From positions 71,564-135,563 of IMG/VR virus record IMGVR_UViG_3300028591_000110: 64,000 nucleotides of DNA, one strand, 5' to 3'. The position numbers were made by a program, and so were the translations under genes. The notes beneath the pieces were generated by a model. It did not search any database. It had not been told where the DNA came from and saw only the letters and a program-made list of their open reading frames with translations. The stretch is from a virus (taxonomy: Duplodnaviria > Caudoviricetes). Shown here piece after piece: positions 1 through 13,463 of this stretch. Within the stretch, counting starts at the first letter, position 1; every line of letters begins with the position of its first letter.

Positions 1-126
1 GCGTTTTTCTGGTGGTTGCGCTCTCCGCATTCTGTTTACGAGGGCTATTTCTTTCGCGCGTCATCTGCGGGTGATCGCGATTGGCAGTCTGGCGGAAACC
101 CAAACACCGGCGTCGCGTTCGGCTTC
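1..126 (+). repeat. DGR template-repeat (TR)-like or variable-region (VR)-like segment, 5'-truncated by the window edge
   Basis: Frame 1 reads AFFWWLRSPHSVYEGYFFRASSAGDRDWQSGGNPNTGVAFGF, the WWLRSP...GVAFGF C-type-lectin (DUF6273-like) VR/TR pattern. It lies about 260 bp upstream of a DGR-type RT. Confidence 0.75.
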
Positions 127-380
127 ACACGGGCGACAGAGTAGAGTATTTGAAAACAGACCGTATGAAGAGAAGGAGGGCATGGCCTTTCTCATGTCAA
201 AAGCATGAGATAAAACGCCTCCAAGTTGGCGTGGGTTGATCCGCGTCACAGATGACCTGCAGGCGGACGCTATCGAGCTTGGTATCGCTTGACGGTGATG
301 CGATATTTCAAGCCTGCAGGCTACGCAGCTAGTGGAACCGTCCGAAAAGCTGTACAGGGAGAGAATATAAATAACATAGG
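127..380 (+). ncRNA. Structured TR-RT spacer RNA of the DGR
   Basis: Hairpin TCTCATG/CATGAGA (190-210), ACGCC/GGCGT stem, paired CCTGCAGG copies (256-263, 313-320) enclosing TATCGC/GCGATA. Position matches the DGR spacer. Confidence 0.55.
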
Positions 381-389
381 TGATTTGTT

Positions 390-1646
390 TTGACTGGTAC
401 ACAGAGAAGAAAACAGAAAATCTATGAGCGGCGCGTCGCAAGGCGGGCTGCTAAACGAGCTGAACGCAATAAGACCTACGGCAGTTTTTATTGGGTGTTT
501 CAGCACGGAAATGTTGACCGTGGTTTCAGAGACATTCGCAAGAAGCTGGTAAAGTGCGCTGACGGCATTTGGTACTGTGTGCACGCTCCGATTAACGAAG
601 TACACACATGTAAGAAGTTAATGAACGGGACGTACAAATTCCGTCCTCTTCGCAAAAAGCATATTAAGCAGCGAGGAAAACCGAGGGATATTGGGATCGG
701 AGCCGCAGAGGACAGGGTTGTTTTAAGTACGCTGACAACGCACTGCTTGATGCCGATGATTGAACCAAGACTAATCAACACATGCACAGCCGGTCGTCCA
801 AACATGGGGCCGGAGGTCGCGATGCTTCAGCTTGAAGAAATGCTGAAGGATCACTACCGAGAGCACGGCACGGACGGGTATGTTCTAATCTTCGACATCC
901 GTAATTACTACGGCAGTATTGACCGGGATAAACTTGGCGTCATGCTGCGTAAAGTAATCAAAGATCAGCGCTTGATTCGGCTTATCGAGGATTCAAATGA
1001 CGTCGCGATTCCGGACAGCAGGATCGGCATCAATCTTGGCAGCTCTACTTCTACGATGCTTGCTGCGCTTTATATGAGCGGAGTGGATCATTATATGAAA
1101 GAAGTTTTGCGGCTCAGATACTACGGGCGCCATGGGGATGATGGGTTTATCATTCATCATGATAAGGAGTTTCTGCTTTCCGTTCTGGACGCGCTGCGCG
1201 AAAAGACTTCTGAGCTTGGTTTGGAATTGCATCCGAAGAAAACGCAGATTATCAAACTTACCAAAGGGTTCCGATGGCTGAAAGTGAAGTGGAAACTGAA
1301 AGAAACCGGATACGTTGTGAAGAAAATGAATCACGATATCGTGACGCGAGACAGCAAAAAGATGAAGAAATGCCTTGCTTTAGAGGCAGAAGGTCTTACT
1401 ACTATGAATTATATTCGCAATTCTGTGTGGAAGGGCTGGCTGAACAAGTCGAAGAATCCGGATCTTATCAGGCAAAAGCCGATCCGCAAAGGCTTCAAAA
1501 AGCGGTTTAGATATGATAATTACTTTGTCAGGATAAAAATGGCGAACAGGTATTACAGCCTGTTCGGTGAGTGGGAGGGCTGTAATAGAGATGTATTTTA
1601 TCAAATTATTGGAGAACGACGAAGTAGTCGGAGCCGAGCAGCTTGA
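390..1646 (+). CDS. DGR-type reverse transcriptase with atypical motifs
   Basis: RGKPRDI, EDRVV, GYVLIFDIRNYYGSI, GINLGSSTST, YYGRHGDDGFII, GLELHPKKTQI. 418 aa, no maturase or endonuclease domain. TTG start with an AGGTGA RBS. Confidence 0.85.
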   Translation: MTGTQRRKQKIYERRVARRAAKRAERNKTYGSFYWVFQHGNVDRGFRDIRKKLVKCADGIWYCVHAPINEVHTCKKLMNGTYKFRPLRKKHIKQRGKPRDIGIGAAEDRVVLSTLTTHCLMPMIEPRLINTCTAGRPNMGPEVAMLQLEEMLKDHYREHGTDGYVLIFDIRNYYGSIDRDKLGVMLRKVIKDQRLIRLIEDSNDVAIPDSRIGINLGSSTSTMLAALYMSGVDHYMKEVLRLRYYGRHGDDGFIIHHDKEFLLSVLDALREKTSELGLELHPKKTQIIKLTKGFRWLKVKWKLKETGYVVKKMNHDIVTRDSKKMKKCLALEAEGLTTMNYIRNSVWKGWLNKSKNPDLIRQKPIRKGFKKRFRYDNYFVRIKMANRYYSLFGEWEGCNRDVFYQIIGERRSSRSRAA

Positions 1647-2133
1647 AGTGCTTGAGTATGTTCGACAAGATACAAACGGAAATAATATTCGATGCTCTGT
1701 GCTTTCGGCGCAGGGCATCATTTCATTAGATGGCGGTTCGATCTATCAACTTGACGGCAAGCCCGCAATGGTCGGCGGGTATAAGATCGCTGTGTTTATT
1801 GATGGCGACGAATACAGCGAGATTATCCAGGAGCTTCAGGACGAAGATCCGGATGACGACATTCCCGCCAGCGACGAGGCTTTGACGCGGGAGGAGCTGA
1901 CTGCGAAAGTAGCAAAGCTTGAGGAAATGAACACCATGCTTACAGGAATGCTCCTCGAAAACCGAGAGGACAGCATGAAAGCGTCCAAGGTATACAGCGA
2001 GGGCGATCTCATCATTGTAAACGGCGAGCTGTATAAGGTTCTTGCAAAAATCGCAAACGGTTCTTTGCTGACTGTAGGCACAAATGTAAAACAAACAACT
2101 ATTGCGGCTGAGATTGCCGCATTAAGTGTATGA
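1591..2133 (+). CDS. Hypothetical tail-associated protein (C-terminal CBM5/12-like YSEGDLIIVNGELYKV)
   Basis: ORF overlapping the RT 3' end, in structural-gene context. Confidence 0.55.
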   Translation: MYFIKLLENDEVVGAEQLEVLEYVRQDTNGNNIRCSVLSAQGIISLDGGSIYQLDGKPAMVGGYKIAVFIDGDEYSEIIQELQDEDPDDDIPASDEALTREELTAKVAKLEEMNTMLTGMLLENREDSMKASKVYSEGDLIIVNGELYKVLAKIANGSLLTVGTNVKQTTIAAEIAALSV

Positions 2134-2451: not shown

Positions 2452-3741
2452 GTGGCTACGAATGAGGAAGTAATCTGGTCTTTCCTGTATGACAAGATCG
2501 GCAATGCATACGGCGTTGCCGGGCTGATGGGGAATCTCTACGCAGAAAGTGCGTTGAAGCCTACAAATTTGCAGAACAACTTCGAAACCAAGCTCGGATA
2601 CAGCGATGCATCCTACACCGCTGCGGTTGACAACGGCGTTTACAAGAACTTCACGATGGACGGCGCCGGATACGGATTGGCGCAGTGGACATATCGGACA
2701 CGCAAGGCGGCTCTGCTTGCTTACACGCAGGCACAGGGCAAATCTATCGGAGACTTGGACACTCAGCTTGCGTTTCTATGGAAGGAGCTGCATGAGAATT
2801 TCGCAACAGTTGTGAAAACTCTGAAATCCGCAAAGAGCGTGAAAGAGGCTTCCAACGCTGTTCTGCTCAAGTTTGAGGCTCCGAAAGACCAGAGCGAAAA
2901 AGTACAGGCATTGAGGGCGAGCTACGGACAGGCGTACTACGACAAGTACGCAATCGCTCCGATGTCGGAGGAGGAGAAGATTATGGCTGATCTAGGGATC
3001 ATCAATATGCCGGCGCACAGCACGAATCAGTGGTATCGCAACGGCAACAAGATTCAGTACATCGTAATGCACTACGTTGGTGCGGTCAGCACGGCCAAAA
3101 ACAATGGCTCTTACTATGGGAATACTGCGAATATCGGCGCGAGTGCGCACTATTTCGTGGATGAAAATCACATTGTTGCTTCCGTGCCGGAGATTATGAG
3201 TGCAGGACACTGCGGTGTTGACTATTCGGGCGGCAAGGCGCCGTTCTGGGGCAAGTGCACGAACAAAAACAGTATCGGCATTGAAATGTGCTGCAAGAAA
3301 ACCGCAAGCGGACAGTGGTACATTGAGCCAGCAACGGTTACGAAGTCTGTTGCACTTGTGAAGTGGCTTATGGCGAAGTATGGCATTGACGCGGCTCATG
3401 TGGTGCGTCACTACGACGTCTGCTACAAGCGTTGCCCTGAACCGTGGGTTCGCGACGCTGCGCAGTGGGCGGACTTTAAGCGAAGAATCAGTGAGGAGGA
3501 AATTGACATGACGAAAGCTGAAGTAAAAGATATGGTCAAGGAGATCGTGACCGAAATGCTTACGGGCGCAAACACTGAGCCCAGCGATTGGGCAAAGAAA
3601 GAGATGGGCGAGCATCTTGAGGATGTAAAGCACATCACGGACGGCACTCGTCCGCGCGGATACACCAAGCGCGAGGAGACGGCTGCCATGGTTCGTCGCG
3701 CCGAGAAGCGTCTGATGGCAAAGATCGAAGAGTTGAAGTAA
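2452..3741 (+). CDS. Endolysin: phage tail-lysozyme domain + N-acetylmuramoyl-L-alanine amidase + SLH-like C-terminus
   Basis: GLMGNLYAES and GYGLAQWT (lysozyme); IVMHY, ASAHYFVD, SIGIEMC, VVRHYDV, CP (Amidase_2); SDWAK...DGTRPRGYTKREE (SLH-like). Confidence 0.9.
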   Translation: MATNEEVIWSFLYDKIGNAYGVAGLMGNLYAESALKPTNLQNNFETKLGYSDASYTAAVDNGVYKNFTMDGAGYGLAQWTYRTRKAALLAYTQAQGKSIGDLDTQLAFLWKELHENFATVVKTLKSAKSVKEASNAVLLKFEAPKDQSEKVQALRASYGQAYYDKYAIAPMSEEEKIMADLGIINMPAHSTNQWYRNGNKIQYIVMHYVGAVSTAKNNGSYYGNTANIGASAHYFVDENHIVASVPEIMSAGHCGVDYSGGKAPFWGKCTNKNSIGIEMCCKKTASGQWYIEPATVTKSVALVKWLMAKYGIDAAHVVRHYDVCYKRCPEPWVRDAAQWADFKRRISEEEIDMTKAEVKDMVKEIVTEMLTGANTEPSDWAKKEMGEHLEDVKHITDGTRPRGYTKREETAAMVRRAEKRLMAKIEELK

Positions 3742-8574: not shown

Positions 8575-8823
8575 TCAAGTATTTGATAAAGTACCCGTTG
8601 CGTCTACTGTAGCAGAAAAAACGGGAATACTCAAGCTGTTTTGGTAGTTGATGATGTCGCCGCGATAGATGCGGAATTGCTTTCCAACTCTGATAGACGG
8701 GATCTCCTGGTTTCGCACCAGAGAGTAGGCGGTGTTCCTGCCGATTCTCAAAAGCGCCGCCATTTCATCGACGGTCATCATAACAGGAATCTCTTCGACA
8801 GAGGTATAGGTCTTAGTTGCCAT
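8575..8823 (-). CDS. xis: Excisionase (HTH_17)
   Basis: MTVDEMAALLRIGRNTAYSLVRNQEIPSIRVGKQFRI, adjacent to int. Confidence 0.85.
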   Translation of the reverse strand: MATKTYTSVEEIPVMMTVDEMAALLRIGRNTAYSLVRNQEIPSIRVGKQFRIYRGDIINYQNSLSIPVFSATVDATGTLSNT

Positions 8824-10975: not shown

Positions 10976-11200
10976 TCAAGAAACGTCATTACTCTGCCCC
11001 CCCCCCATCAGTGGGGTGACGGTGGATGCGTCTACCTCAGAGAATGGGCCGATTTCCACGTCATTGTTGTATTTAATGCTTACAAATGGCGCCTCGCAGA
11101 TGTAGTAGCGTTTCTGAGCGTCAATGGCAAGATAGCCTTCGACATATCCGCCGGTGTCTTTTCTGCGGCCTTTATAGAGGCCGGTTCCTTCTCTATACAT
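10976..11200 (-). CDS. YopX-like protein
   Basis: YKGRRKDTGGYVEG...EVDASTV pattern. Confidence 0.55.
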   Translation of the reverse strand: MYREGTGLYKGRRKDTGGYVEGYLAIDAQKRYYICEAPFVSIKYNNDVEIGPFSEVDASTVTPLMGGGQSNDVS

Positions 11201-11209
11201 ATTGTCTCC

Positions 11210-11500
11210 TTAGTAAACCAAGTATTCGTCAAAGCCGTACTGCTCTGACAGCGTGCGGGTCATTGATGCAAAGACTGATTCTGTACTGTGGTCATATTTG
11301 AAAATACAAACGTCTTTATCGTCGTAAATTGCCGCTCCAATTTTCAGAATCTTGACCAGCAAATCAAGTTCATCATCCGATAGCTTGTAGTGACCGCCCT
11401 TATACTCATGGAATGAGCATCCGGTCGTTTGGCTTACAGCGCCGGCCTTTTCGCATGCCAGACGCACATGGGAACAGGTGTCACATGTTGGCATGCTCAT
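11210..11500 (-). CDS. Hypothetical protein
   Basis: Operonic ORF with RBS. Confidence 0.55.
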   Translation of the reverse strand: MSMPTCDTCSHVRLACEKAGAVSQTTGCSFHEYKGGHYKLSDDELDLLVKILKIGAAIYDDKDVCIFKYDHSTESVFASMTRTLSEQYGFDEYLVY

Positions 11501-11778
11501 TCTGTTTCCTCCCCCGGCTTCGACGACAGAATATATTGCCCGCCATAGCCGAACATGGCGTTCTGCTCATCCGTCAGACCGCATTCGTCATAGGCTTCCT
11601 GTTCGTCAAACGAATTGAGGAAGATCCAGGTGTGCATCTTCTTGCCGGCCTTCAGCAGCTCGTCGATGACGGTTTTTGCCTCAACGACCGCAGCGGCAAA
11701 GTCCGGGTCGAGATGTTCGGCGATGCACTTTTCCGTATATCGCCCAAGGCGATTGATAATATCTTTACAGTTTGTCAT
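11497..11778 (-). CDS. Hypothetical protein
   Basis: Operonic ORF with RBS. Confidence 0.6.
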   Translation of the reverse strand: MTNCKDIINRLGRYTEKCIAEHLDPDFAAAVVEAKTVIDELLKAGKKMHTWIFLNSFDEQEAYDECGLTDEQNAMFGYGGQYILSSKPGEETE

Positions 11779-11788
11779 GTATGATCTC

Positions 11789-12061
11789 CTAAAGTTTTGC
11801 TTCTTTCTTCAGCCATTCCTGCCAGCATTTGATGCAGCTCGCGCCTTTCTGTTCGCACTCGACATGCGGGCAAATTCCATTGCTGACCATCGCTAGAAAA
11901 GGAGCTAGTTTTTCATCCGGCAAACGTCGGATGTCGTCTCCGTTTGTCAATGCTCTGTAATGCTCGCAATCGCGAATGATGTCCGGGTCAGGGCTGTCAA
12001 TCACTTTTTCACACCAGTTGTTGATAAGGTTGAAGCACTTTTTACATTGAATGAATCTCAT
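11789..12061 (-). CDS. Hypothetical Cys-rich protein
   Basis: TNGDDIR...EKLA...C..CWQEWL phage motif. Confidence 0.6.
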   Translation of the reverse strand: MRFIQCKKCFNLINNWCEKVIDSPDPDIIRDCEHYRALTNGDDIRRLPDEKLAPFLAMVSNGICPHVECEQKGASCIKCWQEWLKKEAKL

Positions 12062-12450
12062 TATTCCTCATCTTTCTGCGCCTTTTGCAGCTTATCCAAA
12101 ATCCAATCAGCCAGATCTGCTACGTTTTCTTCGTCCCATTCAGAAAAGTCATCAAAAGACATTGTACCGATTGCGAATGCTTCCTTTACGCGGGTCAGCT
12201 CGAATGTCATGCTGTCGCCAATTTGAAAGTAATGAGATAGAATGTCGATCAGCTTCTCTCGTGTGGGAATCATGGATAGCAATTCGTCAATGGCGTTTGC
12301 AGCGCGTTCTGCAAGCTCCTCAGAGCACGTCTTAAATCTATCTTCGTCGAAGCCAGAGTATAAGCTGCATTCTGCAAAATTGTATTCACAATTCCCAGTG
12401 TGGCAACGGAGATCTTTTGCTAATCCCTTATAGTCAGTCGTCGTTGTCAT
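12061..12450 (-). CDS. Hypothetical protein
   Basis: Operonic ORF. Confidence 0.6.
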   Translation of the reverse strand: MTTTTDYKGLAKDLRCHTGNCEYNFAECSLYSGFDEDRFKTCSEELAERAANAIDELLSMIPTREKLIDILSHYFQIGDSMTFELTRVKEAFAIGTMSFDDFSEWDEENVADLADWILDKLQKAQKDEE

Positions 12451-12907
12451 TATCCTCCTTCATTGTCCTGTGCCTTTTCTGATGGCACTTCTTGCAAAGC
12501 GTCACCAGATTGTCCGGCTCATCTCCGCCGCCTTGCGAAACGGGGAGAATATGATGCACTTCGAGCTGTCCGTCGTCAATCGGAACCGGCATACCGAACG
12601 GATTCATAAACACATGCAGCTCACCGCAATCCTGACAGGTGAAGTTGTCTCGATACAACATGCGGAGTGAATACGGATCTCTGCCGCGCTGCCAGACCGT
12701 GCGAAGATCAAACTCTCTGCGGCAATCGTCCGAACAGAATCGGCGCCGTTTACTTTCAACAGCTCCACCGCACCACGGACATTGGCCTTTTGCCTCATAT
12801 CGCGGCTTCGAATACATCACAGCGTCCCTTCCGTATAGTTCAACAGCCTTATAGAGAGCGGGGAAGGGGCGTCGTGTTCCGTGCGTTTGCCAGTAGTGTT
12901 TAATCAT
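12434..12907 (-). CDS. HNH endonuclease
   Basis: RDNFTCQDCG, LEVHHILPVSQGG, NLVTLCKKCH. Confidence 0.9.
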   Translation of the reverse strand: MIKHYWQTHGTRRPFPALYKAVELYGRDAVMYSKPRYEAKGQCPWCGGAVESKRRRFCSDDCRREFDLRTVWQRGRDPYSLRMLYRDNFTCQDCGELHVFMNPFGMPVPIDDGQLEVHHILPVSQGGGDEPDNLVTLCKKCHQKRHRTMKEDNDNDD

Positions 12908-13106
12908 CTTTCTCCTTTACGCGAAACTTTTCAATATTGGCACTTTGATAACCGCAGTTGAGACAGCTTGCTTTGGCCTTCCTGTAATAAACCGGATATG
13001 CCAGTGTGCGGCTAGGGATACGAACTACCTTGTCGCATCCGCACTTCGGACATTTGTATTCAATCATTTTTGCGCAGAAGTGATTTGTCTCTGTATGTGA
13101 GTCGTT

Positions 13107-13463
13107 TCAATCCGCAGCCTCCTTGTTTGACGGAACGATGACAGGCGCATTCGCAAGCATATTAATGATCGTCGATTTTGCTGCGTCCGCTTCTCCATGC
13201 CTTCTTTGCGTGCCGCGCCCGAACGGATAATGATTATCCATCTCCGCACGGAAAGCGGCGCGATCAATCAGATCGCCATGCTCTGACAACTGTTCGAGAG
13301 GGCATTTTGGATGCGTCCCTGTGCAAAAATCAAATCCCCTATTGGTTGGGTCGTACATAAACTTGATGGTTTCGTTTAGTGGGCAGTAAGCATTATAGGA
13401 TCGGATTTTGCAAACTGCGCAGCTCTTTGGTATCTCTGCGCCACGGATGATAATGTCAGGCAT
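13107..13463 (-). CDS. Hypothetical phage protein
   Basis: IPKSC..C...CPL...HGDLID pattern; start inferred from the RBS. Confidence 0.55.
   Translation of the reverse strand: MPDIIIRGAEIPKSCAVCKIRSYNAYCPLNETIKFMYDPTNRGFDFCTGTHPKCPLEQLSEHGDLIDRAAFRAEMDNHYPFGRGTQRRHGEADAAKSTIINMLANAPVIVPSNKEAAD

Follow-up and report, generated by a model that had tools for sequence, protein, structure and literature searches.

The window analyzed here is a 64,000-nucleotide (nt) stretch, bases 71564 to 135563, of IMG/VR virus record IMGVR_UViG_3300028591_000110, a 135,563-bp tailed-phage record (Caudoviricetes) rated complete. It opens in an element that encodes a reverse transcriptase (RT) of the diversity-generating retroelement (DGR) lineage. 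Two features define DGRs, a single template and hypermutation specific to adenine. Comparison of the element with related loci suggests, with a probability that we place at about 0.6, that it is derived from a DGR and copies its stored templates faithfully, one at a time, into a tail fiber gene, with the RT as the presumed agent of transfer, a role deduced from sequence comparison. We also favor, slightly less firmly, the view that this RT lineage has dropped adenine mutagenesis for a faithful, site-specific replacement of an ~110- to 140-nt segment by one template chosen from as many as 17 or more on a single transcript. This rumen phage seems to alter its host recognition through the exchange of whole templates rather than through mutation.

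A search of the phage genome with positions 1 to 400 of the window returned ~35 short matches, which crowd into the 3.4 kb preceding the window and occur nowhere else. In this upstream region, designated L009 (L009 position equals window position plus 13564), a 2214-amino-acid tail fiber open reading frame (ORF) is followed by a GC hairpin, a 159-amino-acid Avd-like ORF, 17 cassettes, a structured RNA of the RT-2 family, and the RT gene (Table 1). The window opens within the cassette array, and the WWLRSP..GVAFG unit at its start is the last of the 17 cassettes. A preliminary description of the window, made from its sequence alone, had drawn attention to this adenine-poor unit, and its composition is as described (15 A, 35 C, 38 G, and 38 T in positions 1 to 126, with two AAC codons and no AAT). 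The unit had been thought to read like an already diversified variable region (VR); it is instead one of 17 alternative templates. The suggestion that the true template repeat (TR) lies upstream holds 16 times over: 16 other templates lie there, and the unit itself is also a template. It is not the 3' end of a long target gene, as had been allowed for, since the frame of positions 1 to 144, which translate as AFFWWLRSPHSVYEGYFFRASSAGDRDWQSGGNPNTGVAFGFTRATE*, is closed by a TAG in the preceding spacer. The target VR and an avd-like gene, features that the description proposed to look for upstream, are both in L009.

All 17 units are co-oriented, with TGGTGGTTGCGCTCTCC and GGCGTCGCGTTCGGC as the boundaries of each, and spacers of 37 to 44 nt that contain stop codons lie between them. 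Tandem Repeats Finder reported no repeats in the array because the cassette cores are too divergent, and matching of the anchors was required to delimit them. Six further loci with the same anchors were obtained from RT relatives, a metagenome pattern scan, and fiber gene homologues. A pattern scan of genome contigs gave a sole match, in Streptomyces, that was judged to be due to chance. In eight related loci, every one of the 66 silent cassettes has a length divisible by 3 and is free of stops in the WWLRSP frame; the cassettes have 12 different lengths, spanning 108 to 144 nt. Only 30% of shuffled cassette cores were stop-free, and the remaining two frames lack stops in 37 and 10 of the 66 cassettes. 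One orthologous cassette pair from diverged phages had a ratio of nonsynonymous to synonymous substitution rates (dN/dS) of 0.13. These results demonstrate that a cassette library exists and that it is selected to stay translatable although it is silent. Two paralogous cassettes within the array of locus L021 (11244 to 11351 and 11567 to 11674; 73% identical) had a dN/dS of ~2, which hints at diversifying selection among the stored tips.

The anchors are conserved beyond the requirements of coding. The codons TTG, GTC, and GCG are found in 65, 66, and 65 of the 66 cassettes, respectively, and the fiber gene uses those codons at 22 to 28%. Because the synonymous sites of the anchor codons are fixed, the anchors act as blocks of nucleic acid homology. 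The cores are more heterogeneous. Their adenine content ranges from 9 to 35%, so that the low adenine content of the unit in the window, which the preliminary description had treated as characteristic of the template, is not a general trait. At one extreme is cassette C01 (L009 10990 to 11112; 9% A and 43% G), which also has an altered anchor, WWVRSP. At the other is C06 (L009 11790 to 11900), which with 11 AAY codons and 35% A resembles a classical DGR template. In the samples examined here, contigs of unrelated elements also match the 3' part of C06, with loose ends falling at positions 11859 and 11893.

The VR is a copy of one cassette in every complete locus (4 of 4), the loci coming from independent assemblies. 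In the locus of the window (G000) the donor is C03, the third of 17 cassettes, with an identical run of 131 nt that includes 23 adenines. The donor is the sixth of at least six cassettes in L020 (116 nt; 16 adenines), the eighth of nine in L021 (126 nt; 26 adenines), and the last of 16 in L022 (116 nt; 29 adenines). A single G/T mismatch in L022 lies outside the identical run, and the first anchor codon there also differs from that of the cassette. The identity ends at its 3' limit directly after GGCTTC and at its 5' limit within the WW anchor or a few bases upstream. None of the ~94 adenines in the four pairs is altered, and the tabulation of mismatches by base that had been proposed revealed no A-specific mismatches in the array loci. 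For comparison, in two single-template relatives drawn from the same data sources as the array loci, 16 of 40 (L014) and 14 of 29 (L016) template adenines are altered (40 to 48%), and all mismatches are at A. In vitro, the Bordetella phage RT (bRT) in complex with Avd inserts the wrong base opposite 52% of template adenines (bioRxiv 10.1101/2020.04.29.068544). Of the options that the preliminary description had offered, a faithful retrohoming RT is the one that best fits letter-perfect copies in four loci with no adenine altered, and an altered or non-adenine mutational specificity found no support. The arrangement of one expression site and an untranslated, in-frame donor array in which the donor is kept is that of a silent-cassette system. 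All 18 units (VR and cassettes) lie on the + strand, rather than in the inverted orientation of an invertase system or shufflon.

Contigs of four public gut runs (X1 to X4) were aligned to positions 8800 to 15300 of L009 for comparison of strains. In X1, the probable source of the record, the 131-nt unit shared by VR and C03 is a separate unitig with a depth of 28.9 versus ~14. The fiber gene is ~97% identical in X2 and X4. In X2 the fiber contig runs into CGGCTGTTCGCT, the start of C12 (12 of 12 letters), and the contig 3' of the VR opens with AAGCTACGTTTAT, the end of C12 (12 of 13 letters). C12 itself is a stand-alone 130-nt unitig in X2, the outcome expected of an assembly at k=31 if VR and C12 are identical. 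A contig of X3 links the end of C13 (13036) to the 3' anchor of the VR (10246), and in X4 the fiber contig runs into CGATCTTCAACT, a match to C09 apart from one synonymous change (11 of 12 letters). These results demonstrate that the cassette present in the live VR differs among strains of a single phage species. The arrays also vary between strains, with cores replaced, lost, or gained at anchor boundaries (joints 12544 to 12708, 12598 to 12421, and 11007 to 13359). In X2 and X3, which are bovine, the C10 core is found in the C11 slot and slot 10 has an unknown core (L009 12421 to 12722); therefore, cassettes move or get overwritten within arrays.

The RT that accompanies the array is derived from canonical DGR enzymes but distinct from them. 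As the preliminary description had reported, it is full length, retains the three catalytic aspartates (D169, D250, and D251), and has the motifs LGSSTST and HGDD. Its closest solved relative is bRT (8ub7_A; E 1.5e-15), which places it in the DGR lineage, and only a handful of relatives were found among 5.8 billion proteins. In a quick maximum-likelihood tree of 66 RTs, the eight array RTs group as one clade (Shimodaira-Hasegawa approximate likelihood ratio test support, 100; branch length, 0.8) that branches from within the canonical DGR RTs. At the position of the methionine of YMDD, present in 86% of 97 canonical relatives, all eight have a glycine (xGDD). The clade also lacks W55, K56, S58, Q112 (L here), and F174 (Y here), residues that are 84 to 96% conserved in the canonical relatives. 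The other two motif changes are more restricted, with H in place of Y (HGDD) only in P0001 to P0003 and S(T/A) in place of the SQ of the DGR signature [I/V/L]GxxxSQ only in the subclade P0001 to P0005, of which P0002 to P0005 have S(T/A). Thus, of the altered motifs, only the change from YMDD to xGDD tracks the arrays, and LGxxxST is not bound to this architecture. The motifs are not private mutations of one phage; they mark a selected clade (RT dN/dS of 0.05 between G000 and L011), the ORFs are intact in eight members, and every array, even where RT identity falls to 40%, has an intact RT beside it. GenBank phages yielded no RT with >36% identity, scans of viral contigs yielded no further array member, and a wider RT profile run on viral contigs found only two canonical single-TR DGRs. 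In L024 (9384 to 9462) and L025 (9351 to 9542), which are canonical single-TR DGRs from IMG/VR, three to six tandem 24-nt repeats lie directly upstream of the TR.

The spacer between the last cassette and the RT gene, which had been described as structured, matches Rfam family RF03077 (RT-2 RNA) over its full length (1 to 222) with a score of 72.3 bits (gathering score, 40). The same family was found in L010 to L013 and L015. RNAalifold identified 16 pairs with compensatory changes across five loci, and in 7 of 7 loci that show the 3' end of the array the RNA is followed by the RT gene. Thus, a dedicated, selected RT clade and its RNA accompany the arrays always.

The proteins encoded upstream of the array are also those expected of a DGR. 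The C terminus of the fiber contains a DUF6273 domain (E 2e-17), and its last 229 residues were modeled (predicted local distance difference test score [pLDDT], 87) as a C-type-lectin/FGE-like domain, the type of fold found in lectin-like DGR targets; the VR comprises the last ~40 residues of this domain. In structural comparisons the fiber tip was most similar to a T. ramosa IgA peptidase domain (9qa6; Z 16.0), and the match to the DGR target TvpA (2y3c) has a Z of 6.7. Further matches are to FGE-like folds (PvdO, CarF, FGE, and EgtB) and C-type lectins (Z 3 to 6), as well as to a Bacteroides fimbrial protein (4eps). The target was designated a tail fiber because a homologous gene lies downstream of baseplate genes in L020 and L022. 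The 159-amino-acid ORF was modeled as a four-helix bundle (pLDDT 80), as expected of Avd. It had no sequence match in Pfam or the PDB, so that only the comparison of folds is informative; Foldseek returned S23-family bundles and Avd (4dwl_D and 8ub7_E) with TM-scores of 0.77 to 0.85 by target length and weak E values (0.005 to 0.24).

The cassettes are promoterless and nontranslated, each a distinct, full-length, in-frame version of the VR between the same 18-nt and 15- to 18-nt anchors. In the mechanism that we propose, the region from avd through the array and the RNA to the RT gene would be transcribed as one transcript that contains all of the templates and a single RT-2 RNA. A complex of RT and Avd, organized by the RT-2 RNA, would reverse transcribe a single cassette without adenine mutagenesis, and the cDNA would replace the VR between both anchors. 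The donor cassette would remain in place, making the process copy and paste. RNAalifold pairs the 3' anchor with a conserved purine-rich stretch of the spacer RNA. An 11-mer, GGTYNTGYYCT, lies ~28 to 31 nt upstream of every cassette, the first included, in all loci (for example, at L009 11290 to 11300, and in L012 and L018 to L022), and the single TR of L015 is preceded by the similar GGGTGTTCTCT. Docking of the cassette leaders on the spacer RNA is not supported: genuine and shuffled leaders gave equal duplex energies (mean z, -0.43 to 0.03), and the most favorable sites were scattered.

Most of this machinery has a counterpart in the DGR of Bordetella phage BPP-1 (mtd-VR, avd, TR, spacer RNA, and brt). 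The shared features are a DGR-lineage RT, an Avd-like four-helix bundle, a VR at the C terminus of a lectin-fold receptor-binding protein with a hairpin downstream, an order in which template, structured spacer RNA, and RT follow one another, and a sharp 3' homology boundary. However, BPP-1 has one template, whereas the array loci have 9 to 17 or more that differ in length and sequence and no adenine-specific differences between TR and VR, and their RTs have xGDD for YMDD, have lost SQ in one subclade, and lack several conserved N-terminal residues. Single-template DGRs of Firmicutes gut phages (L014, L015, and L016), which have DUF6273 fibers, also resemble the array loci. They have a homologous fiber of ~1800 to 2200 amino acids with a WWLRSP..GVAFGFCI tip, the same gene order, the same RNA family (RF03077; RT-2 RNA in L015), and an RT that is ~30% identical. 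In contrast to the array loci, they have one AAC-rich TR with mismatches to the VR only at A, and their RTs keep SQ and YMDD.

Several points weigh against faithful copying of stored templates by the RT. The choice of an internal cassette is the weak point of the mechanism: no mechanism for it was found, pairing between leader and spacer being no better than in shuffled controls. The helix between the 3' anchor and the spacer is without covariation; its columns are invariant, and one pair is broken in L021 and L022. The comparison of samples rests on contigs rather than raw reads, so that minority variants within a sample would be invisible. Three related fiber proteins, P0021 to P0023, come from k=31 contigs that span the whole VR, which may mean that those samples lack an identical array copy and that these loci are exceptions. 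The direction of transfer, from array to VR, is deduced from the VR always having a copy in the array (5 of 5 cases). SQ is kept by the array RTs of the sister subclade, L021 and L022, and by P0098. R74 and I181 of bRT promote adenine mutagenesis (bioRxiv 10.1101/2020.04.29.068544), and their equivalents are conserved in the RT of the window as R99 and L216; therefore, the RT sequence itself does not predict high fidelity. Finally, a phage or host recombinase acting on the 15- to 18-nt anchors could give the same copy-and-paste products.

The last point is the core of the most serious alternative, gene conversion in the style of pilE/pilS or vlsE, in which recombination at the anchors, either homologous or based on short homology, would copy silent donors to the VR and the RT would have no part in the transfer, being perhaps a rare mutator or having another role. 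Transfers that are error-free and nonreciprocal are what such a process would give, the replacement, loss, and gain of array cores at anchor boundaries is expected from recombination between anchors, and the search for RNA pairing that selects internal cassettes found none, which is in its favor. However, the anchors are merely 15 to 18 nt long, and the identity between VR and cassette stops exactly at the 3' anchor, like a DGR homing boundary. Furthermore, a bystander role for the RT is difficult to reconcile with the strict linkage of an array-specific RT clade to the arrays, with the RT, the Avd-like gene, and the RT-2 RNA intact beside every array over the whole range of RT divergence, and with the purifying selection on the RT and compensatory changes in the RNA. 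We therefore consider gene conversion unlikely, although it deserves to be taken seriously. The likeness to Neisseria pilE/pilS and Borrelia vlsE/vls is nevertheless real: one expressed site lies next to promoterless, in-frame cassettes with conserved flanks and variable cores, and copying is nonreciprocal. Those systems use recombination, with no RT, and usually transfer segments that yield mosaics, whereas the phage locus copies whole cassettes between two short anchors, in the company of an RT, an Avd-like protein, and a structured RNA, and it acts on a host range gene rather than a bacterial surface antigen. Invertible tail fiber segments and shufflons (Mu Gin, P1 Cin, and R64 Rci) likewise provide programmed switching of the receptor-binding C-terminal end of a fiber or pilus among pre-encoded alternatives. 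Those are site-specific inversions among two to seven alternatives that leave no donor copy, unlike the phage cassettes, which are all co-oriented and whose donor is retained.

Flow in the opposite direction, from VR to array, would make the cassettes records of former fiber tips. The cassettes bear the anchors of the VR and could themselves be targets, and the same cores are found in different slots in different strains. However, an archive has no source of new VRs, because adenine mutagenesis cannot produce the 108- to 144-nt variation in length, and it would often lag behind the VR, whereas in every case the VR has its copy in the array. Many cassettes begin with a codon other than TGG and the VR always has TGG TGG, which fits a transfer that starts inside the anchor. 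An archive is thus improbable. A trace less probable still is an ordinary mutagenic DGR with many TRs, in which the identical pairs of VR and cassette would be recent or selected events. Several cassettes with AAY codons, C06 foremost, and the conserved equivalents of bRT R74 and I181 would suit such a DGR. However, AAY accounts for only 7.5% of cassette codons, adenine content is 22.6% in the cassettes versus 26.9% in the neighboring gene, and the chance of zero altered adenines in the four loci at the rate of the relatives, which come from the same kinds of assemblies, is ~1e-24; X2 likewise merges VR and C12 into one unitig. The notion of a decaying or domesticated, currently inactive DGR remnant, also raised in the preliminary description, could appeal to the nonconsensus RT motifs, but it is scarcely credible given the RT dN/dS, which excludes decay, the intact ORFs and conserved RNA, and near-identical strains with different cassettes in the VR.

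Table 1. Positions of the features of the cassette array locus in the window and in the upstream region L009
Feature	Position	Strand	Remarks
Tail fiber ORF, 2214 amino acids	L009 3628-10272	+	Ends ...WWLRSPIAEAGTFWYMLTSGSRDNGNYYTSNSVRGVAFGFCI*
VR	L009 10144-10260	+	C-terminal end of fiber
GC hairpin past fiber stop codon	L009 10292-10310		Upstream of Avd-like ORF
Avd-like ORF, 159 amino acids	L009 10480-10959	+	Between fiber gene and array
All 17 cassettes	L009 10990-13687	+	Co-oriented; located by anchor matching
Cassettes C01-C16	L009 10990-13529	+	Located by anchor matching
3' end of leader/spacer between cassettes 16 and 17	Window 1..9	+	Array extends upstream
Cassette C17, final silent template	Window 10..123	+	114 nt, in frame, stop-free; encodes WWLRSPHSVYEGYFFRASSAGDRDWQSGGNPNTGVAFG
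5' anchor TGGTGGTTGCGCTCTCCG (WWLRSP)	Window 10..27	+	Common to VR and all cassettes; synonymous sites fixed
3' anchor GGCGTCGCGTTCGGC(TTC) (GVAFGF)	Window 109..126	+	Common to VR and all cassettes; VR/cassette identity stops directly after it
Structured spacer RNA, Rfam RF03077 (RT-2 RNA)	Window 127..382	+	Between C17 and RT
RT, 418 amino acids, DGR-derived, array-associated clade	Window 390..1646	+	TTG start
LGSSTST replacing DGR signature [I/V/L]GxxxSQ	Window 1035..1055	+	L216 = bRT I181; T222 = bRT Q187
HGDD replacing YMDD	Window 1131..1142	+	G249 = bRT M214; G in all 8 array RTs

A hairpin within the fiber coding sequence, GCGGTTCC-AAC-GGAACCGC (L009 10118 to 10136), lies 8 nt 5' of the VR anchor and is absent from the cassette leaders. 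The same site in L021 has GGTCCC/GGGACC, a compensatory pair that entails a change from Ser to Pro and a synonymous Gly change. This hairpin and the GC hairpin after the fiber stop codon may mark the recipient site. On the other side of the locus, a 188-amino-acid ORF with a weak match to CBM_5_12 (window 1567 to 2133) overlaps the RT stop codon. A small ORF likewise overlaps the end of the RT gene in L010, L012, L013, L016, L021, and L022, and two readings are plausible, a conserved companion gene or just the gene that comes next in a tail or lysis module. A 429-amino-acid ORF (window 2452 to 3741) occupies the position of the Phage_lysozyme2 and Amidase_2 endolysins in L013 and L021, which places the retroelement between tail fiber and lysis modules.

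No description of template arrays or of faithful DGR copying was found in a literature search that left most subscription journals outside its reach and is therefore weak evidence of novelty, and in the passages that it returned from the survey by Wu et al. (PMC5758913) multiple TRs go unmentioned. Standard DGR finders seek adenine-biased pairs of TR and VR and would miss or misread such loci.

The array clade has kept the machinery of DGRs and altered both of their rules, with many templates in place of one and exact copying in place of hypermutation. If the RT does the copying, then DGR-type enzymes can be faithful, and the clade-wide substitutions, including the change from YMDD to xGDD, are candidate determinants of the selective infidelity of the canonical enzymes. 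The locus would then represent a natural system for multiplexed, template-encoded, targeted replacement of sequence, which is relevant to genome-writing tools. For the phage, it would be a retro-conversion system that writes one of many stored alleles to set host range and thus a new route to altered receptor specificity, in which a fiber tip is chosen from a tested repertoire rather than drawn at random.

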